Shown in pieces: positions 4,513 to 33,907 of a DNA stretch of 38,836 bases. The notes below the pieces were generated by a model, which worked only from the letters and a program-made list of their open reading frames with translations, made no database searches and had not been told where the DNA came from. The position numbers and the translations under genes are program-made. The stretch spans positions 1-38,836 of the forward strand of contig JBDRNT010000015.1 of the NCBI GenBank assembly GCA_043810925.1, given 5' to 3'. The stretch comes from Candidatus Eiseniibacteriota bacterium (GTDB lineage Bacteria > Arandabacterota > Arandabacteria > Arandabacterales > Arandabacteraceae). Each line of letters opens with the position of its first letter. Position 1 is the first letter of the stretch.

Positions 4513-6215
4513 CGTCTTACCAGAACTGCGGGGGACCTGGCCCGGTAGGTCCTGTCCGAGGCTGTCGCCTTCGCTTCCAGGAGAACCAGGTAGGCCCCCA
4601 TTGCCTGACGTGATTCGTTGTCGTCCCTTCCATCCCAGAAGGTGGTCCGCGACGTCTCGACGACCTCGCCATCAATCAGCCTCTTTACAAGCCTTCCGCT
4701 TAGATCGAATATGCTCAGCCGCACGAGGCACGGCTCGCAGAGTCTGGCGGCGATCGCAAGCAGATCGTCTTGCCCGTCTCCATCCGGACTGAACGCCGAG
4801 GGACTCAGGGTGAGTATGCTGCCGTCTCCGGGAAGATGGAATGAGACGCTGTTCGCCCGGCCGGGGCTACCGCTCGTATTGCCATAGTGCGGGGACCAGT
4901 TCGATGAACTCGATGACGGTCCGCGAGGATCGATACGCTCGAATGATATACCGGGTCTGCTCCATCGCGTACGATAGGCGACGGAATCGACCATCGTGCC
5001 CCGGGCATCCCTGACAATGATCATGTCGGCGAAGTCAAGAGGACCATCGACGTCATTGAGCGTCGGCCAACCACCACTGGGTCTTAAGAAACATCCGCGG
5101 TCCAGGTCAGGATGTGCCACCGCGAATACCTCCACGTCCTCGACCAAGACCAGCATGTCGCCCCGTGAGAGCATAAGGTCATCCCCAACCAGCTTTCTCT
5201 TGGTCCCCCGGTGGTCTTCAAGTGTCCAATCCCGGATACTGATGCCTGAAGTACCGTGAGCGAAGATTTCTATCCACTCGCACTCGGTGCCAGTCGGTTT
5301 GAACATCACCTCGTTTATCACCACGGGGGGCGGCGGAAGCACTATGCTGGTTGACACGCTGTCGTTCCAGTGCCATCTGTCGAGGGCTTGCCTGTGCCAG
5401 ACACGGATCGTATGGAGTCCCTCTCCCGGATGGGGCAGTCGGACGACTACCTTGACTTGCTCTGAGGGCTCAAGGGCGTCCGGAACGTGGATACTGTCAA
5501 GGAGTGCCCCGAGTGCTGCGCTGACGGTCGCGTCGCCGCACACCTCGATCCCGCTGTTTACGAGCATGCAGGCGATATCGATATCCGCTCCGGAGGTTGA
5601 GGTGTACCGCGAGAGACCCGCCTTTTCGATCGCAAGGTCAAAGGGAGGATGATTGAAGTCGCCCGGTGACGGGACTTCGAGCAGGCGGAAGTCTTCGGAG
5701 TTAAGATCCCGATCCGACCCGTCCGGATCACGACCGATGCTCACACCCGAGTGTGCACACGTCGCGGGAGAACCTTCATAGTATTCCTCGTAGACGAGAT
5801 CTCCCCACCCGACCACATCCGCACTCCCGTCGGGGGCGACAAGCCGGCACCCGTCCGGTCCGTTTTGAAGATCGAGTGCCGTCACAAAGTCCGGAGGAGG
5901 CAATACGAGGTCCTCGCCGATGACGAAGAAACCACGAGCCTCTACGGTATCGGTCCCCAAACCCGTCCACTCGTGTTTCCACCGGTTCTCGTAGGCACCG
6001 TTTCCCGTCTCGAACATCCAGCCTTGAAGACACACCGGCTCGAGTGCGCAGTTGAACAGCTCTGCGAATTCGTACCCCGTGTCCGAGCCATCCGGATCAT
6101 AGAGCACTTCGTTTATCACAACACGCGGCTCAGCACCGATATCTGAAGACAAAGCCAGGAAAACAAGAGCGGCCAGTGAGGCCGCTACCAGCGGAACAAC
6201 TTGTCCTCGTCCCAT
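4509..6215 (-). CDS. Secreted lamin-tail-domain protein (two LTDs, Ig-like domain, C-terminal FlgD-Ig/T9SS-like sorting domain)
   Basis: Two VVINEV[LM]..P...E[FW].E repeats, SPG..N motifs, and C-terminal FSPDGDGQDD..IFDLSGRLVK..WDGRD...GAY. ATG 6215 follows GGAGG. Confidence 0.8.
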   Translation of the reverse strand: MGRGQVVPLVAASLAALVFLALSSDIGAEPRVVINEVLYDPDGSDTGYEFAELFNCALEPVCLQGWMFETGNGAYENRWKHEWTGLGTDTVEARGFFVIGEDLVLPPPDFVTALDLQNGPDGCRLVAPDGSADVVGWGDLVYEEYYEGSPATCAHSGVSIGRDPDGSDRDLNSEDFRLLEVPSPGDFNHPPFDLAIEKAGLSRYTSTSGADIDIACMLVNSGIEVCGDATVSAALGALLDSIHVPDALEPSEQVKVVVRLPHPGEGLHTIRVWHRQALDRWHWNDSVSTSIVLPPPPVVINEVMFKPTGTECEWIEIFAHGTSGISIRDWTLEDHRGTKRKLVGDDLMLSRGDMLVLVEDVEVFAVAHPDLDRGCFLRPSGGWPTLNDVDGPLDFADMIIVRDARGTMVDSVAYRTRWSRPGISFERIDPRGPSSSSSNWSPHYGNTSGSPGRANSVSFHLPGDGSILTLSPSAFSPDGDGQDDLLAIAARLCEPCLVRLSIFDLSGRLVKRLIDGEVVETSRTTFWDGRDDNESRQAMGAYLVLLEAKATASDRTYRARSPAVLVRR

Positions 6216-23208: not shown

Positions 23209-24249
23209 TTATTCTCCTGAGAGCTCCTTGGCGCGTTCGAACTCCGCCATCGCCTCCGTACTCCTACCCATCTTGCCGTATGTCGCTCCAAGCATCTCGT
23301 GAAGCTCGGCTGTCTCTTCGATCTCAAGCACTCTTTCGAAGATCGATACCGCGTCCTCGTATTGCTCTATCTTGATATAGGAAACACCGAGGTTGTACAT
23401 GGCATCCCTGTAAAGTTCAGGATTGTCCTGCTGAGAAAGCCCTGCGGCCTTCTGAAAACCCTGGGCCGCATCAGCGAAATTCTCAAGGCTGAAGTACGAC
23501 GCACCTATCTGATAGTGAAGCGCAGCATCATCAGTCCTGGTTTCGGCAGCTTTGTTATAGTACGTAAGCGCTTTTTCGAATTCCTTCTGGTTGAAATACA
23601 TGTCCCCGAGCGAGAAGAGACCGTCGGTATCGTCCGGGTCAAGTTCTACCACCTTGGCAAAAGCCTCACCGGCCAGATCGTACTCGCGCCTCGACTGGTA
23701 AGTTATGCCCAGGTTCCGCCAGGCATCAACGGATTGCGGGTCGACCTCGACGGATCGTTTGAAAGCACCGAGCGCTTTGTCCTCCTGCTTGAGCATGGAG
23801 TAGGCAACCCCGAGGTTGATGTGTCCCTTGGCATAACCCGGCTCGACTGCCACGGCGTTTTCGAAGTACGCCACAGCTCCTTCATAGTTCATCGTGGCAT
23901 TCTCCGTGATGCCCTTGTTGTAATTATCGACAAAGAAGGCATGCTGGTTGTTGTAGACATCTTCCTTCCTGTCCTCCGGGGCGGTGGCCTGAGCATCCGC
24001 GAAGGCCTTTTCCGCCTCCGCATACTTCTCCTGCATGGCCAGGGACATTGCCAGGATCAGATGGGCTTCCCAGTTGTCGGGCTCATCCATGACGGCCTTC
24101 TTCGCGAAAGCCTCCGCCCTCGCATAGTCCGCATTCTTGTAGTAGTACACCTTGGCGCTCGTGAAATTGGTCGATCCTCCGCACCCGATTACACAACAGG
24201 AGATAGCAGCCAGCAAAGCCGCAACCAGTATAATCTTAAGACCACGCAT
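23209..24249 (-). CDS. Tetratricopeptide-repeat lipoprotein
   Basis: Lipobox-like VIGC after a hydrophobic leader; repeated NLG..Y....A...F..A...P units; AAGGAGG RBS. Confidence 0.85.
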   Translation of the reverse strand: MRGLKIILVAALLAAISCCVIGCGGSTNFTSAKVYYYKNADYARAEAFAKKAVMDEPDNWEAHLILAMSLAMQEKYAEAEKAFADAQATAPEDRKEDVYNNQHAFFVDNYNKGITENATMNYEGAVAYFENAVAVEPGYAKGHINLGVAYSMLKQEDKALGAFKRSVEVDPQSVDAWRNLGITYQSRREYDLAGEAFAKVVELDPDDTDGLFSLGDMYFNQKEFEKALTYYNKAAETRTDDAALHYQIGASYFSLENFADAAQGFQKAAGLSQQDNPELYRDAMYNLGVSYIKIEQYEDAVSIFERVLEIEETAELHEMLGATYGKMGRSTEAMAEFERAKELSGE

Positions 24250-24850
24250 GTCATCCTCCTTAAGACAGAACTCAATCCAAGTGGACTATTATATACCTGA
24301 GACCGATTGTCAAGCTAAGATGAACACTAAGAGCTAATGTAGCCACAACCTCCCGCCGATCTCCCCTGATGGAGGTCGTCATGAGGAATGGGCAACGAAC
24401 GAGTGCTCATATCCATGGTACACGCGTACCTTTCGAGCACGCATATACCGCTGTGATGCTTGCACCCTTTGACTTTTCCTCAAACGGGGGTCAACCGTCA
24501 CAAGCGCCGCAAGCCCATCCAATATCGTGCGCTCCTCCAAAGAATCGGAATGAGGCCACGGGGATTCGCACACACTACGAAGGAGATCGTTTCCCCTACC
24601 GTGCACACCAGAGTTCCAACCTGAAACTCTGCAGGCCTGACAGGCCGCTCGCAACATTCTCAGGCAAGTGCACGGATGCCGTTGCCACTGCGGGAGCACT
24701 CCAGCCAGAGTTCCCGTTTGACGCAAGACGCCGCTCTCTATCTGCAAGCACCTCCAGCTTGGGCGAGCTTTATCCTGCACTGTGCAATCAGCAGGGTAAG
24801 GAAGGGTGTAGAAAAGAGTCGGCAGTCTCCTTCCCCCGTGGCCTTTCTTA

Positions 24851-24931
24851 TGGGTGGGGTCTTTTGCAGATCACAAGCGTCCCAGCGAGTTTGCGTGCCG
24901 GGCTCGCAGGTAGAACATCTGACCCCACCCA
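24851..24931. repeat. Degenerate REP-like inverted pair
   Basis: tgggtggggtc (24851-24861) / gaccccaccca (24921-24931); the right arm reads tctgacccca as in the RAYT flanks. Confidence 0.45.
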
Positions 24932-25022
24932 ACCCCCACCCCACCGAAAGCGGATCGGGGCGGGCCGGTTCGACACTGAACCGGATTGCCGGGTGTGCTG
25001 ACAGCTGACACCAGAGGTCGTC

Positions 25023-28000
25023 GTGAGATACTTGTGCAAGAATATACCCGGTACCCTGGCTGCATTCGCGGTGGTTTCGGGGATCTATCTGACAACTGAA
25101 CTGGCCCGGTCTCCACAGTTAAGTCATGGACCATCAACCCGCCTTGTAATCGCGGCCGCCGTGCAACTGGCGGTCCTCATTTTCTTGTGTATCACTGTTT
25201 GGATGACGCTGCGCAGGCACAGGCACCGTGAGATCGGCGTCAAGCGAGACCTCGATCGCGTGGGAAGTTACATCGAGACAGCAGGGGCGGCGATCGCCGT
25301 GATCGATGGCAACGAGCGAGTCACGTTCATGAATACCGAGGCCTGCGCAATCCTCGGTCGCGACAAGCACGAAGTCCTCGGCAGGAACTGGTTTGACGGT
25401 TTCCTTCCGGAAGAGACCAGAGAAGACCTGAGAACCGCTTTTCAGTTGATTATAGACGGCAGAACCGAGCTGGATAAGACCGTCGAGTACCCGGTGCTCA
25501 CGCGAAACGGCGAGACAAGGCTGATGGCATGGCATCGCACTCTGCTGCGTGACGAGAGCGGCAAGATCGTATCAGTACTGAATCTGGGCGAGGACATCAC
25601 CGAGCGGAAGCGGACCGATGACTTGAATGCCATCCTCCGTGAGCTGGGAATGGCGCTGAGCACCGTGTCCAACCTCGAGTATGGACTCAAGGTGTGTCTC
25701 GAAGCCGCTCTTGGGGCGTCGGGCATGGATTGTGGAGGCATCTGCCTCATCGATGAGACCTCGGGGGCCCTTGATCTGGTGTTTCATCAGGGCCTATCAC
25801 CGGAATTCATCAACAGTGCCTCACATTTCGACGCTGATTCGAAAAACACCAGGATCGTGATGGCCGGAAAACCGGTCTATACAACGCACGGGGCGCTCCA
25901 GGACGTGTTCGGTGTGCATCTGGCCGAGGGTGAGAGGCACGAGAGGCTTAAGGCTCTGGCCGTGATTCCGATGAGCTGCGAGGGACGGGTGATCGGTTGC
26001 GTGAACGTCGCGTCACACAAATTCAGGGACGTTCCAGTGGGATCGCACGCGGCGCTCGAGACCATCTCTGCGGAGATCGGCAGTGCGATCGTGCGACTCA
26101 GAGCAGAGCGGGCACAGCAAGAGAGCGAGCAAAGGTTCCGGGATCTGGCTGAAAATGCAAGTGAATGGATCTGGGAGGTCGATGCGGAGGGCAGGTACAC
26201 CTACTCGAGCCCGCTCGTTAAGAAGGTGCTGGGTTACGGGCCGGAGGAGGTACTCGGAAAGCACTTCTATGATTTCTTTGTCCCGGAAGAACGTGAGTTC
26301 TTAAAGCAAGCGGCGTTGGCCGTGTTCGCCAGCAAGGAGCCTTTTCGGGCGTTCGTCAACCGGAACATCCACAGGAACGGAGAGGTCCGGTGGCTTTCAA
26401 CAAGCGGTGTGCCCATTCTCGACAGCGATGGCAACCTGCGTGGTTACAGGGGCATAGACACGGATATCAGCGAGCGCAAGTGGGTCGAAGACGAGTTGAT
26501 TTGCCTTTCAAGCGCGGTCAGAGCATCGATCGATGCGATCGTGGTGAGCGATGTCCAGGGGAAGATAACCGAGGCCAACGACGCAGCTCTTTCTATGTTT
26601 GGCGCCGGTCACAGAAGCGACCTCATCGGTATGAACGCACTGGACCTGTTCGCTCCCGAAGATCGTAAGGAAGCCGCCGCCGGGCTGGATACGACCTTCA
26701 AGACCGGATACACAAGGGCCAAGGAGTATGAAATCATAACGCTCGCCGGGGCGCGGATCCCGGCCGAGATAACAACAAGTGTCATGAAAGATGTGAACGG
26801 GGAACCCACAGGTATTGTCGGCGTAGTCCGGGATATCACGGAACGCAGGCAGACCGAAAACGCGCTCAGGGAAAGCGAAGAGAGATATCGCGATCTCTTT
26901 GAGAACGCCAATGATCTAATTCAAAGTGTTGCACCCGACGGGCACTTCATATATGTCAACCGCGCATGGCGAGAGACGCTGGGCTACAGCGAGGAAGAGG
27001 TCGGGGGACTTAACTTGTTCGATATCATTGATCCGGACTGGCATGAGCACTGCAGACAAGTATTCGAACAGGTGATGTCCGGTGAGCCGGCCTGTTACAT
27101 CGAGACGGTGTTCATTTCCAGGGACGGCCGGAAGATCATCGCGGAAGGTAGCGCAAGTTGCCGAACACAGGACGGCAAACCTGTCTCTACCAGAGCGATC
27201 TTCCGTGACGTCACCACGCGCAAGTACGCCGAAGAGGCATTGCGACATTCGGAGCGGGATCTCAGAATCAGGAACGCAATTGCGCACGTCTTCCTCACAG
27301 CCCCCGAGAATGAGGTATTCACGGAGGTCATGAAGATCGTCCTGAAGGCGGTCAACAGCACCCACGGGCTCTTCGGATACATCTGTCGGACCGGTGATCT
27401 CGTGTGCCTGTCAGTCACCAAGGGGATTGTGAAAGAGGACCTGACGCTCGATGTGGGTGCAATTCTGCCGCGCGAGAAGTGGTCCGGCATCTGGGGAAGG
27501 GCACTAACGGAGAAGAGACTGGTGTGCTCCGGCCCGGCCGCAGATATCACTGAGGACCGGGCCCCCGTCTGCAAGACTGTGGCCGCACCGATCATACACA
27601 ATGACCGGGTGATCGGCTTGATAATGGTCGCCAACAAGCCGGACGACTACGACGACGATGACGTCAGACTGCTTGAGACGACCGCAGGCAACATCGCACC
27701 GATCTTACATGCAAGACTCGAAAGGGATGGCGAGGAAGACGCACGGAAACAGGCAGAGAAAGATAAGGCGGGAATACGCGCACAGCTGATCCATGCACAG
27801 AAGATGGACGCAATCGGCACTCTGGCCGGCGGCATCGCTCATGACTTCAACGACCTGCTGTCCACAATTCAGGGTTGCAGCGAGCTTGCGTTGCAGAAGA
27901 CCTCGGAGGAAGATCCCGTCAGGAATGACCTGGACCAGATACGTGAAGCGACCCAGCGTGCCGCCGATCTCGCCAGGCAACTGTTGCTTTTCAGCCGTCA

Positions 28001-28942
28001 GCAGCCGATGGAGACGTCGCTTATTGATCTCAATAAGGTGACGACAAACATGCTGGAAATGCTTGGCCGTCTCATCAGCGAGAACATTGAGGTCGATTTC
28101 CATCTTGACCCCGACCTGCCTGTGGTGCGCGGCGACAGGTCCAACATGGAACAGGTGATAATGAATCTCGTGCTCAACGCCCGCGATGCGATGCCGGGAG
28201 GCGGCAAGATCATCATCACCACCGAGAGTGTGACCCTGGATGAAAATCAATGCGCTGTCCTCGCCCAGGCGACACCCGGCAAGTACGTTTGCATCACGGT
28301 CACCGATGAAGGGATCGGCATGGACAGCGACACCCTCGAGCACATATTTGAACCCTTCTTCAGCACCAATGTAGCCGGAGAAGGCGCAGGGTTGGGTCTT
28401 GCGGTTGTCCATAGTATAATCCAGCAGCACGAAGGCTGGATAGACGCTTACAGTGAGCCTGGCAACGGCGCGACATTCAAGGTCTACTTCAAAGCTTTCT
28501 CGGCAACCATAGAGGAGAAGCACCGGGAGAAGTCATCGTTGAAGAATTACCAGGGCAACGGCGAGACTATCCTATCGTCGAAGATGAGGAGAGCGTCCGC
28601 CGGTTGGCTGCGAAGATATTCAGCTCCAGCGGTTACGTGACGACGGATGTCCCCAGCGCGGAAGATGCGTTGGATCTCTTCGAGAAGCAAAGCGGAAACT
28701 TCGATCTTGTCTTCAGTGACGTTATGCTCCCGGGAAAGAACGGAGTCGAGCTCGCCGATGAGCTACTCACGCGTAAGCCGGACCTTAAGATTCTGCTCAC
28801 AAGCGGACACCTTGATGATAGAGCTCAGTGGTCCATAGTCTGCGACAAAGGCCTCAAGTTCCTGCACAAGCCCTTCACCGTGCTCGACCTGCTTCAGGCG
28901 GCAAAAGAGGCACTTGTGCCGGCCGGTGTGGGCAGCGAGTAG
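25023..28942 (+). pseudogene. Hybrid multi-PAS/GAF sensor histidine kinase with a frameshift before the receiver domain (pseudogene or sequencing error)
   Basis: TM-PAS-GAF-3xPAS-GAF-HisKA (GGIAHDFND)-HATPase in 25023..28640. The receiver (IVEDEESVR..DLVFSDVMLPG..KPF) continues in another frame to 28942, with the break at about 28573. Confidence 0.85.
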
Positions 28943-29130
28943 CCATCAACGCAACACCCACCACAACTAAAGAACAAGGTACGCGCCGACGATAGCTATT
29001 ATGAGGACCTGTGAAGCGGTCGGATCACAAAGATACGTTGAGGATCGGCGAGTGAGTATGACGCCGCCATCGCTGACGGATACGGCGCCGCAGCCTGGGG
29101 CTCGTGAATAACCCCGGCCGAGTGAGGATG

Positions 29131-29436
29131 GGAGGTTCTGGGCATGTGTGCGTTAGTGGCTGTGTCCAGGGCATTGCTGCACCAGGCACTAGTGATCTGC
29201 ACAGGAGGTCGTCGGTGGTGTGCAGATCGTGGCCGGGGTGCAACTGCGTTATACCATGTCCCGCACAGGAGGTCGTCAGTGGTGTGCAGGACGGTATCAA
29301 AGACGTAGCCACTCTTGCCGTTCCCATACGGGAGGCGGCCACCCGGTATAGGAACATCTCTCTGTCGCCAGTGACAAGGTTGGGCACCTTATCGTTCCTG
29401 GCTCCTTCCCCTTTACCTATCAAACCCAGAACCTCC
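29131..29436. ncRNA. Candidate large structured ncRNA with twin hairpins
   Basis: 12-bp closing helix (29131-29142/29425-29436), inner helix (29155-29166/29302-29313), two 10-bp stems with near-identical 15-nt loops (29194-29228, 29258-29292), and further hairpins. No convincing protein is encoded. Strand is uncertain. Confidence 0.55.
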
Positions 29437-29581
29437 ACAGTCTCTCCTTAAAACACCTGAAGGCACAATCGAAATCGCTTCCCCTTTGAGAAAGCCATCT
29501 CAACTGTGCCTTCGACTTGTAAGTCTAAAACCTACCCGGCAAGGCAAGTCAAGTTTGTATCATGAACCAATGTCAGTCAAG

Positions 29582-29631
29582 TTATCGGCGTCTGCTCTGA
29601 CGACTTTAGCTAATTGTCTGATCTTCGTCAA
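29582..29631 (-). promoter_or_regulatory. sigma28 (FliA/SigD)-type promoter overlapping a sigma70-like promoter, copy 1
   Basis: Minus strand TAAA-N15-GCCGATAA (exact consensus), preceded by TTGACG-N17-TAAAGT. Confidence 0.75.
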
Positions 29632-29684
29632 GCGCTGAGTCCTCTTGCCTCTTTTGACACTGTCATGAGCCATCATCAATCAAC

Positions 29685-29734
29685 TTATCGGCGCGCGCCG
29701 CCGTGACTTTAGCTGATTGTGCGATTTTCGTCAA
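29685..29734 (-). promoter_or_regulatory. sigma28-type promoter overlapping a sigma70-like promoter, copy 2
   Basis: Same architecture 103 bp away: TTGACG-N17-TAAAGT and TAAA-N15-GCCGATAA, with diverged spacers. Confidence 0.75.
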
Positions 29735-29797
29735 GTAGAGACTATGCTTGCCGGCTTTGACAGGCGATTGCGGGTTATGGCAGTGTAGCCGGATCCG

Positions 29798-30538
29798 TCA
29801 AACCTGCTCTTCGAGTATGGCTTCGAGCCGCTGTCTGAGCTCCCCGAGTTCCTTTGACTTAAAGGAACTCTTGGTTTTCTTAAGGCCCTCGACGGTTTCC
29901 CTTAAGACCCCAATCAGGGTGTTCATCCTCGGACAGTCGAGCAGATGGCATACGTTCTGGTCATCCGTCAGTTTTGCAAGAGCCTCGGTGACATTCTTAA
30001 GACTGGTCAGGCTCAGGACAATGTTGTTGAGTGTCACGGTAACGAATGACTCGACAGGCACGAGACCGATACCGGCTGGGTTGTCCTTAAGCACCACTCT
30101 CATTCGCTCGAGCTTACCATGCCATTCCTGCAAGTGATTCTGAGTGCTCTCAAGCGCCTGGTAGACTCTGGCTCGCTCTACCGCCTCGTTCACATGAGAG
30201 ATCAGCTCGCTGAAATCGATGGGCTTGACCAGGTAGGCCACGACCGGAAGACCGATCGCCTCGATTGCCGATCCCATCGACGGATATCCCGTCACCAGGA
30301 TGACCTGAAGGCCGTGGCTTTTCTCCTTCACCTCTTTGACCAGCTCCAGTTCCGGATTCCCCGGCATCTTGATATCCGCAACAAGCAGGTCATACCGGTT
30401 CTCCCGAAGCTTCTGGGCGGCCGAAGGGCCGTCGGGTACACAATCACAGTAATAACCCTCCCTACGCAGGAGGTCGGCGGTCGAAGAGAGGAACACATCC
30501 TCGTCATCTGCAATAAGAATCCTCCCCAACTCCTCCAT
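29798..30538 (-). CDS. Response regulator (REC plus unrecognised helical C-terminal domain)
   Basis: ILIADDED, DLLVADIKMPG, LVTGYPS, YLVKP. ATG 30538 follows AGGAGG. Confidence 0.88.
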   Translation of the reverse strand: MEELGRILIADDEDVFLSSTADLLRREGYYCDCVPDGPSAAQKLRENRYDLLVADIKMPGNPELELVKEVKEKSHGLQVILVTGYPSMGSAIEAIGLPVVAYLVKPIDFSELISHVNEAVERARVYQALESTQNHLQEWHGKLERMRVVLKDNPAGIGLVPVESFVTVTLNNIVLSLTSLKNVTEALAKLTDDQNVCHLLDCPRMNTLIGVLRETVEGLKKTKSSFKSKELGELRQRLEAILEEQV

Positions 30539-30539
30539 T

Positions 30540-33500
30540 TCAGACCTCCTCTGTTTGCTTCCCGATCGGGAGGGAGACGGTGAAAGTGGTTCCCGTATCC
30601 GACGCGCTGTCGAAGGCGATACTCCCACCCATCATCTCAGCCATACCCCTGGACACCGATAGACCCAACCCCAGACCGTTGACTCCGGTCCTGTCCTTGG
30701 TGGTAAAGAACGGCTCGAATACGCGATCCGCGATCTCTTCGGGTATGCCCGGACCCTCGTCACGCACACGTATGACAGCAGTGTCTCCCTCCACCGCAGC
30801 GCTCACCTCGACCGCATTCCCCGGCTGTGATGCTTCTATTGCGTTTCGTATAAGATTATACATTATCTGGTCAACATATCCACCCGGCAATGTTGCCGTG
30901 ATCGGATCCTCCGGGGCGTCAAGACTCAGAGTCACCTCCGCCGCACGGCTGGTGCTCTCAAGTATCGCCACCACGTCGGTTATGGTCTTGGATATCGAGA
31001 CTTCCGTGTCACCGGCCCTCCCCGGTTTGTAGAAGTCAAACATTCTGCGCACTATACCCGCTATCCGGTCTATCTCGCCCTCAACCCGTCCGGCGTATGC
31101 ATAGTGCGGATGGTTCTTATCCATTATGTCCTTAAGCAAAAGAAATGAGTTCTTTATTCCGCCCAGGGGGTTGTTGATCTCGTGCGCTATCCGCGCGGCC
31201 ATCCTGCCCGTAGCCGCCAGTTTCTCGCTCTCCGCACGCTGGTGCTCGAGCTCATGGATACGCGCCGTGCGCTCCCTGACCATGTCTTCCAGGTCCTCGC
31301 TGTAACGGCGTATCTGCTCCTCGCCCCGCCGGAGAGCTTCCTCGGCGCGCTTTCGCTCGGTAATATCAACCAGAATGCCCAGAATCGATTCAATCTCCCC
31401 ACCGTTACTCCGAAGAGGTCTGACCGAGAGATCAACCCAGATAAGAGCGCCGTCCTTCCTGAGGTAACGCTTCTCCACACGATAGCCATCCAGCTTGCCT
31501 TCAATGAGCATTTTGAGATTGGCCCGGCTCATTTCCAGATCGTCGGGATGTGTGTGCTCCATAACAGCGTTACCGACAAGTTCGCCGGGTTCGTACCCGA
31601 GCATGGTGTGAGACCTGTCATTGGCAAGTATGAGTCTGCCGTCGCGACCCACGAGCACCATCCCGTGTGATGCATTGTCGAAGACCCCTCTGAAGCGCGC
31701 CTCTCTCTCCTGCAGGGCTTTCTCAGCCGTCCTTCTCTCCGTGAGATCTCTGATGACCAGTATGGCGCTGCCGGTAACCCCACTTTCGTCTGAAACCGGA
31801 CCCATGTTGGCGGAATACCAGATCTTCCTGCCCTTCGGGTCCACTGCCGAGTAGTCGACAATCTGTGGCTTTCCCGTATCAAACGCCACTTCAAGCGCTT
31901 CCTCAAACCTCAGGTGGTATTCCGCCGGGATCCAGGCGAAAACCGAAGTACCGATTATGTCATCCATCGATACTCCATCGTAAAGGCGGTTGGTGAAGAG
32001 GATTCGGCCCTCCCGGTCGAGCTGGACTATATAGTCGGGGGCATGCTCGGTGAGGGACCTGAACCGGTTCTCACTCACCCCCAAAGCCGTCTCCGCCCGG
32101 AGTCGTGTGATCGCATTACCTATCGCGGTCGCGACAGTCTCAAGCGACTCGCGCGACCAGCCGGGAACCTGTTCAACGGTGTGCGAGGCAACGTTGATGC
32201 AACCGATGACCCTGCCTTCACGCGTTATTGGCAGCACGGCGATGGCACGCAGTCCCGCGGCGGCCTGGGCACGGCCGAGCGGCACCCCGAGTCTAGCATG
32301 TTCGGTGTACACCGGCTTCCCCGCCATCACCAACTTGAAGTTCGCGGCACCGGGTTTAAAGTGAGACACCGCCTGGATGAATTCAGGTGAAAGTCCCTGG
32401 TGGAAGGCCAGCTCCAGCGCGCCTGAGGCCTGATCAACCAGGTAGATCCCGCCACAATCCATATCCGATACCTTAAGCGCAGCATCGAGACATAGTCTGA
32501 GACCCTCCCTGAGGTCGGATATGGTGCTCAAGGCCAGGCCGAGATCCCGAAGAACCGTGCTCAGAATTCCGAGCCGTTTGCGCTCGGTGATATCGCGCGT
32601 GATTGCTTGAATGGCGTAGGTCTCATCATCCTTCTTAAGAGGTGATGCAAAAATCTCAATCCAGCGCATCTCACCATCCTTCCGGACGATCGTCCCCTCC
32701 ACCGGGCCCAGTTTCTCACCACTTTTAAGACGCGCCAGCATAACACCGTCTTCTGCGAAGTCGTCTTCGAGCACCACTCCGAGTTCCCCGAACGTCTTCC
32801 CGATCAAGTCGCTACTGGGTAACCCCGAGATTTCTTCCGTTGCCTTGTTCCTGGCCAATATCGTCCCATCGAGACCGAGGATAGTGATGGATTCCGGAGA
32901 CGACCCAAACAGGGCCCTCAGTCTGTCCTCGCTCTCACGGAGAGCCTCCTGCGTCCGTATGGATTCGGTCATGTCCTTGCCGATAAGAAGCACCTCGGCC
33001 GGCTCTCCATTCTCATCACACATCACGGTGGCACTGCCCATGAGATTGAGCAAGTTCCCATCCTTCGTAACAACATTCATCATCCGGCCGCTTATCGAGC
33101 CGTGCCGCATCACATCCTTGTGAAAGACTTCCCACGCGTCAGGGACATGGTCCGGTACGAGAATGTGAGCGAAGTCCTTGCCTATCAGCTCGTGAGCTGT
33201 ATAGCCGGTGGCCTCGACATATGCCTGGTTGGCCATCTTCAGTTTCCCTTTGAGGTCAACGACTACAATCAAATCCGCGGAACACTCCAGCGCCCTCGCC
33301 AGCTTCGCCTGCTCTGCTGCGGCCCGCTCCTCTGCCCGCTTGCGGGCACTGACATCACGCATGATGCAGTGGGTGTGCCTGAACCTGCCGTTTTCATCAT
33401 AGGCCAGCCTGCCATCAAAGCTGACACTCAAGTGGGAGCCGTCCTTGCACCTCACTTCGAATTCAACGTCGTGGACGGTTCCCTCGCGTTTGAATTGCTC

Positions 33501-33794
33501 GAACCTCTTCTTGAAGTGCCTCTGATCCTCCGGTCCCAGGAGATCGCCAAACCACTTGCCGATCACGTCCCCGCGGGCGTAACCCAGCACATCCATCCAT
33601 GCGTGGTTCACCTTGAGAATGCGACCCTGGCTATCCAACGAGTGGTACGCAAGGGGAGCCTCATCAAAGAGCAGCCACGTCTCTTCCTCGCTCTCAACCA
33701 ACGCCTTCGTGGTTCCCTTGAGGCCCTCGACCATTCTTTCAAGCTCGCTGATCCGGTCCCGTAACCGAGCCGGTTCATCTTTCGGTCGCTCCAT
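30540..33794 (-). CDS. Cytoplasmic multi-PAS/GAF sensor histidine kinase
   Basis: About five PAS/PAC repeats and one GAF; IAHEINNPL, NLIRNAIEA, DEGPGI, FEPFFTTK, GLGLGL. Start 33794 inferred. Confidence 0.92.
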   Translation of the reverse strand: MERPKDEPARLRDRISELERMVEGLKGTTKALVESEEETWLLFDEAPLAYHSLDSQGRILKVNHAWMDVLGYARGDVIGKWFGDLLGPEDQRHFKKRFEQFKREGTVHDVEFEVRCKDGSHLSVSFDGRLAYDENGRFRHTHCIMRDVSARKRAEERAAAEQAKLARALECSADLIVVVDLKGKLKMANQAYVEATGYTAHELIGKDFAHILVPDHVPDAWEVFHKDVMRHGSISGRMMNVVTKDGNLLNLMGSATVMCDENGEPAEVLLIGKDMTESIRTQEALRESEDRLRALFGSSPESITILGLDGTILARNKATEEISGLPSSDLIGKTFGELGVVLEDDFAEDGVMLARLKSGEKLGPVEGTIVRKDGEMRWIEIFASPLKKDDETYAIQAITRDITERKRLGILSTVLRDLGLALSTISDLREGLRLCLDAALKVSDMDCGGIYLVDQASGALELAFHQGLSPEFIQAVSHFKPGAANFKLVMAGKPVYTEHARLGVPLGRAQAAAGLRAIAVLPITREGRVIGCINVASHTVEQVPGWSRESLETVATAIGNAITRLRAETALGVSENRFRSLTEHAPDYIVQLDREGRILFTNRLYDGVSMDDIIGTSVFAWIPAEYHLRFEEALEVAFDTGKPQIVDYSAVDPKGRKIWYSANMGPVSDESGVTGSAILVIRDLTERRTAEKALQEREARFRGVFDNASHGMVLVGRDGRLILANDRSHTMLGYEPGELVGNAVMEHTHPDDLEMSRANLKMLIEGKLDGYRVEKRYLRKDGALIWVDLSVRPLRSNGGEIESILGILVDITERKRAEEALRRGEEQIRRYSEDLEDMVRERTARIHELEHQRAESEKLAATGRMAARIAHEINNPLGGIKNSFLLLKDIMDKNHPHYAYAGRVEGEIDRIAGIVRRMFDFYKPGRAGDTEVSISKTITDVVAILESTSRAAEVTLSLDAPEDPITATLPGGYVDQIMYNLIRNAIEASQPGNAVEVSAAVEGDTAVIRVRDEGPGIPEEIADRVFEPFFTTKDRTGVNGLGLGLSVSRGMAEMMGGSIAFDSASDTGTTFTVSLPIGKQTEEV

Positions 33795-33907
33795 AGGTTT
33801 CACTTCCTGTGCCGGAGGTAACCAAGCAAGTAACACAGACATCCTTGTTCTGTGCCGCAAAGTGGCTTGTCAGGGAGAGAATAGCAGCATCCGCAGCATT
33901 GTCAAGC

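Follow-up and report, generated by a model that had tools for sequence, protein, structure and literature searches.

Twin hairpins between two convergent operons

We analyzed a stretch of 38,836 nucleotides from Candidatus Eiseniibacteriota bacterium (contig JBDRNT010000015.1 of GenBank assembly GCA_043810925.1; hereafter, the window) and focused on a pair of look-alike hairpins in the 855-bp gap where two operons converge. The gap is bounded on one side by a gene for a PAS/GAF histidine kinase and the receiver open reading frame (ORF) that follows it on the plus strand, and on the other by a response regulator gene on the minus strand. An earlier note, made from the letters of the window alone, had proposed that the loops of the two hairpins are antisense to nearby Shine-Dalgarno (SD) and start regions on the minus strand and belong to a sigma-28-driven antisense regulator of the neighboring kinase. 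Both hairpins are real, with 10-bp stems (plus-strand positions 29194-29203/29219-29228 and 29258-29267/29283-29292) and 15-nt loops that read GGAGGTCGTCGGTGG (29204-29218) and GGAGGTCGTCAGTGG (29268-29282) on the plus strand and differ by a single base. The analyses below make it on balance probable that their loops serve as the two seeds of an abundant, previously undescribed minus-strand non-coding RNA that blocks sigma-28-dependent kinase messages. The parts of this RNA that carry the argument are as follows.

29258-29292, minus strand: hairpin H1, the first in the RNA, with a 10-bp stem containing one U.G pair and the loop CCACUGACGACCUCC (29268-29282)
29194-29228, minus strand: hairpin H2, with a 10-bp stem and the loop CCACCGACGACCUCC (29204-29218)
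~29128-29440, minus strand: structured 3' domain with the twin hairpins, about 310 nt with approximate ends, delimited by fold, conservation, and RNA contigs
29425-29436, minus strand: 5' strand of the closing helix P1, GGAGGUUCUGGG, pairing with 29131-29142
29131-29142, minus strand: 3' strand of P1, CCCAGAACCUCC, at the 3' edge of the conserved, RNA-covered segment

On the minus strand, P1 forms a 12-bp long-range helix of the GGAGG/CCUCC type that closes a domain with several hairpins, and both loops are left unpaired in the minimum free energy structure. The fold of the 3' domain has a z-score of -6.4 on this strand versus -1.75 on the plus strand, and the whole gap folds at -261.7 kcal/mol (z-score, -7.1) versus -212.6 kcal/mol (z-score, -0.4). 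A search against Rfam 15 returned no match at gathering score across the whole window, and relaxing the threshold to an E value of ≤10 for 28800-29900 added only chance-level matches (mir-8536 and sR33). Two ORFs that cross the region, one of 137 aa on the minus strand (29025-29438) and one on the plus strand (29104-29451), were rejected as genes, having no Pfam match and no conserved frame. The ORFs found at the equivalent place in two relatives from other genera (G008 and G010, introduced below) bear no relation to these and run through the conserved motif in other frames, from which we conclude that the region is conserved at the RNA level.

Conservation of the twin-loop domain

The comparison covered 18 species-level genomes, the entire phylum. 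The source genome (G000; 3.85 Mb, 91.7% complete), a sister species of the same genus (G001), and representatives of three other genera (G007, G008, and G010) carry the RNA locus in the same place, behind the same response regulator gene (5/18 genomes); an orthologue of that regulator was found in exactly these five. Between G001 and G000 the identity is 90% over 29753-29123 and reaches ~98% from about 29530 to 29125, with no similarity beyond. The order of elements in the three other genera is a CTAAAG box, a leader, a hairpin followed by a run of five to six U residues, and then the loop-bearing hairpins, of which there is one in G010 and two otherwise. Across the homologues the stems vary (CUGCACA, GAGCAC/GUGCUC, CCCCGC/GCGGGG, CUCAC/GUGAG, CCGCGG/CCGCGG, and CCACCCUU/AAGGGUGG), and GACCUCC is present in all loops despite these differences, the anti-SD loop region reading GGUGACCUCCA or GAUGACCUCCA in the other genera. 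The closing helix is likewise kept with changes in G001, G007, and G010 (columns 12-23 with 320-331 of the four-sequence alignment), and it covaries, with GCGGAGGCUUUGGG facing CCCGGAGCCUCCGC in G007 and GGUGGAGGUUCC facing GGAACCUCCGCC in G010. The outer A-U pair of H2 is replaced by G.U in G001 and in two RNA-library variants.

We also noticed a single-hairpin paralogue of the domain at ~71290-71440 (plus strand) of contig C161 in G000 and on contig C138 in G001 (locus L018, 1495-1610), with the loop CCACCGACUGCCUCC in the former and CCACCGACUACCUCC in the latter. It is convergent with the gene for a 633-aa GAF hybrid kinase, which itself bears a sigma-28/GGAGGTCGTC module of the kind described below and is mostly missing in G001. 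One sequence resembling a ribosome binding site (RBS), GGAGGCAGTCGTG at C170:19201 on the minus strand, is complementary to the paralogue loop.

Strand of the 3' domain

The 3' domain is very probably transcribed in the minus sense, the evidence being good but indirect. The fold z-score is better for the sense than for the antisense strand in 5/5 homologues. Distinct single-sided substitutions at paired positions, collected from G001 and three RNA-library variants, number eight; on the minus strand five of them are Watson-Crick/G.U interconversions, none yields A.C, and three produce other mismatches. All pairs of P1 are kept on the minus strand, with three alignment cells occupied by G.U or U.G, while the plus-strand reading turns these into three A.C or C.A cells. 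On the side that would lie upstream of a plus-strand transcript, the comparison of G000 with G001 finds no conserved sequence, promoter-like or other, the similarity ending at 29125.

Complementary sites at sigma-28-type promoters

Two sites near the kinase gene match the loops, as the earlier note had stated: GGAGGTCGTCATG occupies 24371-24383, and AGAGGTCGTCGTG occupies 25013-25025, running into the GTG start of the kinase. Their features are as follows.

24334-24383, plus strand: predicted target module 1, sigma-28-like promoter (CTAAT-N16-GCCGATCT), 7 nt, and TGGAGGTCGTCATG; 11 nt complementary to the H1 loop, -23.7 kcal/mol
25013-25025, plus strand: predicted target site 2, AGAGGTCGTCGTG, at the GTG of the 1,205-aa kinase; 10 nt complementary to the H2 loop, -20.7 kcal/mol

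The site at 24371 begins ~7 nt after a sigma-28-like -10 box, which places it at the 5' end of the predicted transcript. In G001, the promoter boxes and the site of module 1 are kept with a different spacer, and target site 2 is kept as ...GTCATG though the kinase is absent. The earlier note had taken the first site for an RBS leading into an ATG at 24381; the match is real, and the 207-aa ORF behind it (24381-25001) is unlikely to be a gene, given no Pfam match, a G001 counterpart of 89 aa, and a long indel. The 640 nt between the two sites (24384-25012) consist of blocks of high identity to G001 that alternate with variable stretches and include a long indel; this segment may be a long structured 5' untranslated region (UTR) or other non-coding RNA of the kinase transcript. 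The same note had observed that the one base that differs between the loops corresponds to the first base of each start codon, which is correct for G000 and fails in G001, where both sites read ...GTCATG and the loops still carry C and U.

The first site and its counterparts elsewhere in the genome belong to a stereotyped module: a sigma-28 -10 box of the CGATA type, ~7 nt, YGGAGGUCNNC, and then a start codon. Perfect loop complements of 10 to 11 nt occur at 24371, 25014, C161:82572, and C161:73355, and on contig C161 the YGGAGGTCGTC plus ATG/GTG module heads the genes for two hybrid kinases, an 872-aa PAS-kinase-receiver protein and the 633-aa GAF-kinase-receiver protein. One more copy of GGAGGTCGTC, the fourth, is found 33 nt downstream of a further sigma-28-like promoter, ahead of genes for a YfiR-like protein and a TonB-dependent receptor. 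The 10-mer GGAGGTCGTC has 21 occurrences in the genome, both strands considered, and stands within 45 nt after 4 of the 24 sigma-28-like promoter matches, where ~0.002 are expected by our own arithmetic; the shorter GAGGTCGTC occurs 103 times in the 3.85 Mb. As a generic feature of RBSs the motif is weak (TCGTC follows GGAGG at 5 of 1,525 crude sites, ranking ~13 among 5-mers), and its enrichment is strong near sigma-28 promoters. The copy that the earlier note had placed inside a coding sequence (CDS) near 4660 is present at 4659-4668 on the minus strand. Its suggestion that the loops mimic the 3' end of 16S rRNA holds for a shared core, CCUCCU (16S 3' end, GGATCACCTCCTTTCT, on contig C95), and the mimicry amounts to no more than complementarity to GGAGG implies.

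A search of all 18 genomes with the pattern CGATM-N6-10-GGAGGTCRYC allowed the triplet after GGAGGTC in each module to be compared with the loops of the same genome, as follows.

G000: three modules (24357-24383 and the two on contig C161), GTC (3); both loops GAC-GACCUCC
G001: two modules, GTC (2); both loops GAC-GACCUCC
G007: six modules, ACC (5) and GTC (1); both loops GGU-GACCUCC
G008: three modules, ATC (3); loops GAU-GACCUCC and GGU-GACCUCC
G010: no modules; one loop, GAC-GACCUCC; genome 85% complete

The triplet is complementary to the loops of its own genome in 13/14 modules of the four RNA-bearing genomes with matches, the pairing being GUC-GAC in the genus of G000 and G001, ACC-GGU in that of G007, and AUC-GAU in that of G008. 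Loop-to-RBS covariation among relatives, which the earlier note had named as a check, is thus seen as complementarity that covaries between genera. The longest loop-site match extends to 16 nt in G007 (TGGAGGTCACCAGATG) and to 12 nt in G008, and the reversed pattern has no matches in the RNA-bearing genomes and two across all 18. Since the sites within one genome may share descent, which weakens the count of modules, the number of independent observations is better set at three genera; chance can hardly account for three genera of three matching when the longer matches are added. The genes behind the sites in other genera encode a 1,089-aa hybrid kinase in G008 and a membrane kinase and a receiver protein in G007. 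A TonB-dependent receptor also lies behind a G007 site, and its orthology to the G000 receptor is unsupported (33% identity over the plug domain). The 151-aa ORF behind one G008 site has no homology to the 633-aa kinase of G000.

These findings retain the central part of the earlier proposal and change its object. A minus-strand RNA does appear to follow two perfect sigma-28 promoters (see below), and its loops are complementary to the SD and start regions of sigma-28-dependent kinase messages; the predicted target is a regulon. The neighboring kinase cannot be the sole purpose, because G001 lacks the kinase and receiver genes yet keeps the RNA and both sites, and the two hybrid kinases on contig C161 have sites as good as that of the neighboring gene. 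The interpretation of the earlier note is in this sense partly supported, and its core is well supported.

RNA libraries cover the 3' domain

Sequence words of the window recur in 20 public sequencing runs (19 studies), 10 of which are recorded as RNA. Coverage of 28500-30200 was checked in four runs from four studies, three being RNA libraries and one labeled "RNA? (probably DNA)". Each yields one short contig, spanning 29130-29421, 29137-29402, 29139-29334, or 29154-29425; the first is 100% identical to the window at a depth of 43, and the second has adapter sequence at each end. In all four runs the flanking genes within 28500-30200 are uncovered except for a single unrelated piece of 38 nt, bearing in mind that contigs cannot prove absence. 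A DNA contaminant should cover the flanks as well, and we therefore read the pattern as a 3' domain that accumulates as a discrete, comparatively abundant RNA.

Promoters and the leader R1

Upstream of the 3' domain on the minus strand lie two sigma-28-type promoters and a leader element that we call R1.

29685-29711, minus strand: upstream sigma-28-type promoter, TAAAG-N14-GCCGATAA, the first of a tandem pair; matches the consensus, predicted start near 29675
29582-29608, minus strand: downstream sigma-28-type promoter, TAAAG-N14-GCCGATAA; consensus geometry, predicted start near 29572
29448-29579, minus strand: leader R1, 130 nt, with a variable hairpin, an invariant core, and a long hairpin, defined by covariance model and fold
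29459-29513, minus strand: terminator-like hairpin of R1, followed by AGGUGUUUU; most relatives have runs of five to eight U residues instead

The whole G000 genome has three matches to TAAAG-N14-GCCGATAA, two of them at this locus. In G001, both -35 boxes and the downstream -10 box are identical, the upstream -10 box is one base off (GCCGGTAA), and the spacers differ. The FliA (sigma-28) gene of G000 was recovered by profile search at C36:35006-35680 with 271 bits, above the cutoff, so that consensus promoters and the sigma factor gene are both present and the locus fits predicted membership in a sigma-28 regulon. The promoter region itself is a tandem duplication of ~100 nt (29640-29740 versus 29540-29640), whose unit comprises a TTGACG box, a CTAAAG box, GCCGATAA, and a downstream TGGnTCATGA motif; the duplication is present in G000 and G001, and the other genera have a single copy.

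R1 clearly reads in the minus sense. Its core reads CCUUGNCGGGYAGG...CYURCAAGUCGAAGG, also written CCUUGNCGGGYAGG-loop-CCUGCAAGUCGAAGG, and it folds better in the sense than in the antisense direction in 4/4 genomes (-53.0/-28.4, -57/-43, -63/-52, and -55.5/-31 kcal/mol); a U run follows the R1 hairpin on the minus strand in G007, G008, and G010. The earlier note had the sigma-28 promoters driving the twin loops. They do lie upstream, and what they would directly drive is the 130-nt leader with its terminator-like hairpin, the twin-loop domain standing behind it. A terminator-like hairpin ahead of the 3' domain means that the domain needs read-through, processing, or a further promoter.

R1 is a widespread motif

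An exact search with the core pattern located R1 in 32 further metagenome loci (L064-L095) with GC contents of 0.39 to 0.72, the core columns being invariant partly by construction of that pattern. Aligning 31 sequences gives 651 cells, of which 95.9% are paired compared with 29 to 48% in slid controls, and 49 cells are changed on both sides compared with 13.8 in shuffles, none of the 500 shuffles reaching 49. A sigma-28-like promoter precedes R1 in 13 of the 32 metagenome loci, and the co-oriented ORFs downstream encode receiver, PAS, or kinase proteins in 7/10 cases tested. The twin-loop domain was found among these 32 loci only in near-copies of G007 and G008 and in one cut locus (L064). 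Rfam 15 has no relevant match to R1, either here or in nine further R1 loci. An anti-terminator extension (CCUU/AAGG) that we considered is unsupported, with the flanking pair forming in 19/30 sequences and both flanking pairs in 7/30. Diverged copies of R1 occur in G007 (contig C1; L029:1486-1625, within L029:1300-2052) and in G011 (contig C116; L028), behind a promoter-like site of the form CTAAAC...CGAT; a diverged copy stands ahead of the gene for a 128-aa protein that fits no known family and of that for a PAS histidine kinase.

These patterns suggest that R1 may be a new class of cis-regulatory RNA or small RNA (sRNA). Because R1 mostly stands ahead of co-oriented genes, the twin-loop domain can be read as a co-oriented cargo, and the arrangement suggests conditional termination at R1, which we infer from its anatomy. 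A further step would make the locus a two-layer device in which R1 is the conditional terminator, either a riboswitch or a protein-responsive attenuator, and the cargo is a twin-seed sRNA that silences sigma-28-driven hybrid kinases; we put this forward as a possible but rather doubtful extension.

Genomic neighborhood

The flanking genes of the window are as follows.

25023-28640, plus strand: 1,205-aa PAS/GAF histidine kinase, GTG start
28604-28942, plus strand: receiver ORF following the PAS/GAF kinase
29798-30628, minus strand: response regulator of 276 aa upstream of the RNA, with a receiver and a C-terminal part
30540-33860, minus strand: 1,106-aa kinase

The C-terminal part of the response regulator matched no known family. 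The receiver ORF overlaps the end of the PAS/GAF kinase gene in another frame, and its profile match begins at position 15; the two may be one hybrid kinase split by a frameshift. This kinase and receiver segment (25023-28942; 3.9 kb) is present in G000 and absent from the syntenic place in G001 (L044), where the region homologous to 24200-25030, with both target sites, abuts the RNA. A 90-nt repeat (29029-29118) lies between the receiver gene and the RNA in G000; G001 has no copy at this locus. The repeat looks like a small mobile or REP-like element and is present four times in G000 and at least 12 times in G011.

G000 also encodes CsrA (C36:38011-38160; 82.6 bits by profile search), and FliW was not found in this 91.7% complete genome. 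The csrA gene (84 aa) stands between a STAS-domain gene and an 87-aa ORF, ~2.3 kb from fliA (L030, G000:C36:36511-39660); the 87-aa ORF is FlgM-like by eye and has no Pfam hit.

Proposed mechanism

A sequence of events that would account for these observations begins with FliA polymerase starting at either of the tandem promoters, near 29675 or 29572 as judged from the consensus. The leader R1 would be made first, and transcripts that read through it would enter the ~310-nt domain closed by the GGAGG/CCUCC helix, which would then accumulate as a discrete RNA, presumably after processing. Its 15-nt loops (CYGACGACCUCC) are predicted to pair over 10 to 11 nt, and up to 16 nt in another genus, with the 5' ends of sigma-28-dependent messages that begin with YGGAGGUCGUC followed by AUG or GUG and that mostly encode hybrid histidine kinases. 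Since the duplex would cover both the SD sequence and the start codon, initiation of translation is expected to be blocked, by analogy with known sRNAs. Sigma-28 would thereby activate both the kinase messages and their repressor, an incoherent feed-forward loop that the R1 terminator could gate.

Alternative explanations

The strand assignment is the point at which a different account could enter. The domain might be a plus-strand transcript, made for example from a promoter that escaped notice or as the 3' UTR that ends the convergent kinase operon, and its loops would then be copies of YGGAGGUCNNC serving as a decoy for the 30S subunit or for a repressor that binds RNA, be it CsrA or another. 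Because loops and sites are all found on one and the same DNA strand, their covariation fits identity as well as complementarity. CsrA is encoded here beside the flgM-like gene with FliW not found, the transcript of the sigma-28 module in G001 would run directly into the domain, and the R1 terminator would then merely end a separate small RNA. Several results also weigh on this side or against our own interpretation. In G007, G008, and G010 the two strands of the 3' domain differ little in raw folding energy, the antisense being lower by 2 to 5 kcal/mol; RNAalifold favors the plus strand (-47.9 versus -36.4), a result that is not decisive because the four-sequence alignment is poor; the P1 of the paralogue (G000 C161 and G001 C138) contains one A.C on the proposed sense strand; in three genera the R1 hairpin has the look of an efficient terminator; and the library contigs reveal neither strand nor exact ends. 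They also omit the leader R1 and the 5' strand of P1, which makes it necessary to suppose either processing or a separate origin. We nevertheless consider a plus-strand decoy unlikely. The plus-strand upstream side has no conserved sequence, with the G000-G001 similarity ending at 29125, where the repeat is inserted; the substitutions (five Watson-Crick/G.U and no A.C), the wobble pairs of P1, and the z-scores favor the minus strand; and the gene behind R1 is co-oriented with it in 7/10 other lineages tested. A protein or ribosome is not expected to read 12 to 16 contiguous nt including the spacer. The CsrB-like sponge with CAGGAGG loops that the earlier note had offered as its own alternative fares no better: the 11 GGA that it counted on the plus strand of 29000-29360 are there, but two of them fall in the 90-nt repeat, most of the non-conserved 29000-29124 lies in or beside the repeat insertion, and the conserved domain (29125-29445) has 7 GGA per strand versus ~6.2 expected.

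A minus-strand RNA could also use its loops for something else, for example to bind a protein, to make tertiary contacts, or to pair with its own GGAGG, in which case gene conversion or common descent would explain the likeness to the modules. Most seed-type sRNAs are unlike this RNA, which is large and multibranched and has a long-range helix; the loops could find partners in its own GGAGG stretches (29425-29445); and a response regulator whose C-terminal domain belongs to no known family co-occurs with it strictly, in 5/5 genomes. The energies of the predicted target duplexes are not extreme either. At -20.7 to -24.2 kcal/mol they compare with a mean of -16.3 kcal/mol (standard deviation, 3.6) over 1,524 crude GGAGG-type RBS-like sites, just 1.2 to 2.2 standard deviations better than the average GGAGG site, and stronger duplexes are predicted at several unrelated sites, the best at -35.3 kcal/mol in a carboxylase gene. 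Three further observations tell against our main interpretation: G010 has the RNA with one loop and no module; nine module-like matches, mostly GCC or GTC, occur in the 13 genomes that yielded no such RNA, and the module is thus not confined to carriers; and no sigma-28 module matches the paralogue loop (GACUGCCUCC). What speaks for seeds is that three genera have three triplets, that in each of them the loops find their match in several modules at scattered positions, and that the matches stop at the loop borders. The hairpin stems and promoter contexts are moreover mutually dissimilar, which means that simple duplication does not explain the match, and we judge another purpose of the loops to be about as improbable as the plus-strand decoy. 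The carboxylase match itself, CAGGAGGTCGTCAG at C172:45892 on the minus strand (L063), forms the strongest duplex with loop 1, lies within a 607-aa gene of carboxylase type (family assigned by eye), and is probably due to chance or else is an in-CDS target.

That the region encodes a protein, or that the pattern arose by chance, is scarcely credible. An AAGGAG SD does precede the GTG of the 137-aa ORF (29025-29438, minus strand), but that ORF has no Pfam match and enters the 90-nt repeat that G001 lacks here, and the ORFs of G008 and G010 are unrelated, with the motif in other frames. Chance is excluded by the association with sigma-28 promoters and by the reversed-pattern controls. The preferred interpretation stays with a minus-strand RNA that carries two seeds.

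Comparison with known systems

RNAIII of Staphylococcus aureus and sRNAs of the RsaE/RoxS type use C/U-rich anti-SD loops, with a repeated seed, to block initiation on several messages. The twin-loop RNA resembles them in having pyrimidine-rich loops complementary to the SD sequences of several messages, a seed in more than one loop, and an expected block of initiation. It differs in showing no homology to them in sequence or structure (no Rfam match), in a seed that reaches through the spacer to the start codon, and in predicted targets that share a sigma-28 promoter-SD module at the extreme 5' end; it comes from a small uncultivated phylum and is known from sequence alone. In sRNAs gated by riboswitches, such as EutX and Rli55, a leader terminator precedes the functional RNA body, and read-through decides whether that body is produced. 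The order of a terminator-bearing leader and an RNA body is the same here, whereas R1 has no known ligand or protein and its conditional termination is suggested by anatomy. The twin-loop domain is best described as a new RNA family whose mechanism would be of a known kind, that of an anti-SD loop sRNA, with the R1 leader as a further, undescribed motif. In a full-text search of the literature that left most subscription journals outside, neither such an RNA nor the R1 motif was described.

Other sRNAs are tied to the flagellar sigma factor. The sigma-28-dependent UhpU, MotR, FliX, and FlgO of Escherichia coli are UTR derived, and their targets, some within a CDS, include flagellar regulators and ribosomal-protein messages (PMC10578931). 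They too are small RNAs under the flagellar sigma factor that add post-transcriptional control to its regulon (PMC10578931). The RNA reported here has putative promoters of its own and a leader, is predicted to act at the SD and start sites of sensor kinases, and shows no homology to them. CJnc170 (FlmR) of Campylobacter jejuni is a FliA-dependent, unprocessed RNA of 47 nt that feeds back on the flagellar hierarchy, and CJnc230 (FlmE) directly represses the translation of its targets (PMC11187230). By comparison, the RNA described here is ~300 nt long, structured, predicted to be aimed at kinases rather than flagellar genes, and not homologous. In the CsrB/RsmZ sponges of CsrA, repeated hairpin loops resemble target sites that overlap the SD (PMC4894983). 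The loops here do likewise, in a genome that encodes CsrA; a sponge of this type would need the plus strand, against which the strand evidence points, and the domain has two such loops and no GGA enrichment.

Biological implications

R1 is conserved, covarying, widespread, and outside Rfam 15, and its usual place before two-component genes makes it a candidate class of cis-regulatory RNA. If the doubtful two-layer extension were true, an orphan riboswitch-like class would gate signaling genes across phyla and, at this locus, a kinase regulon through an RNA intermediate. The twin-loop domain points to an sRNA regulon in an uncultivated phylum of 18 species-level genomes, deduced from seed-target covariation across genera and a discrete environmental RNA, a sort of evidence mostly available for model organisms. 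Its compact target module, a -10 box, 7 nt, the SD, a 5-nt spacer, and the start codon, would give rise to near-leaderless messages, whose whole 5' end one loop can cover. The flagellar sigma factor would in this way be tied to the post-transcriptional control of sensor kinases and not of flagellar parts, which suggests that entry into the motile state would re-tune the signaling repertoire of the cell through a feed-forward loop.

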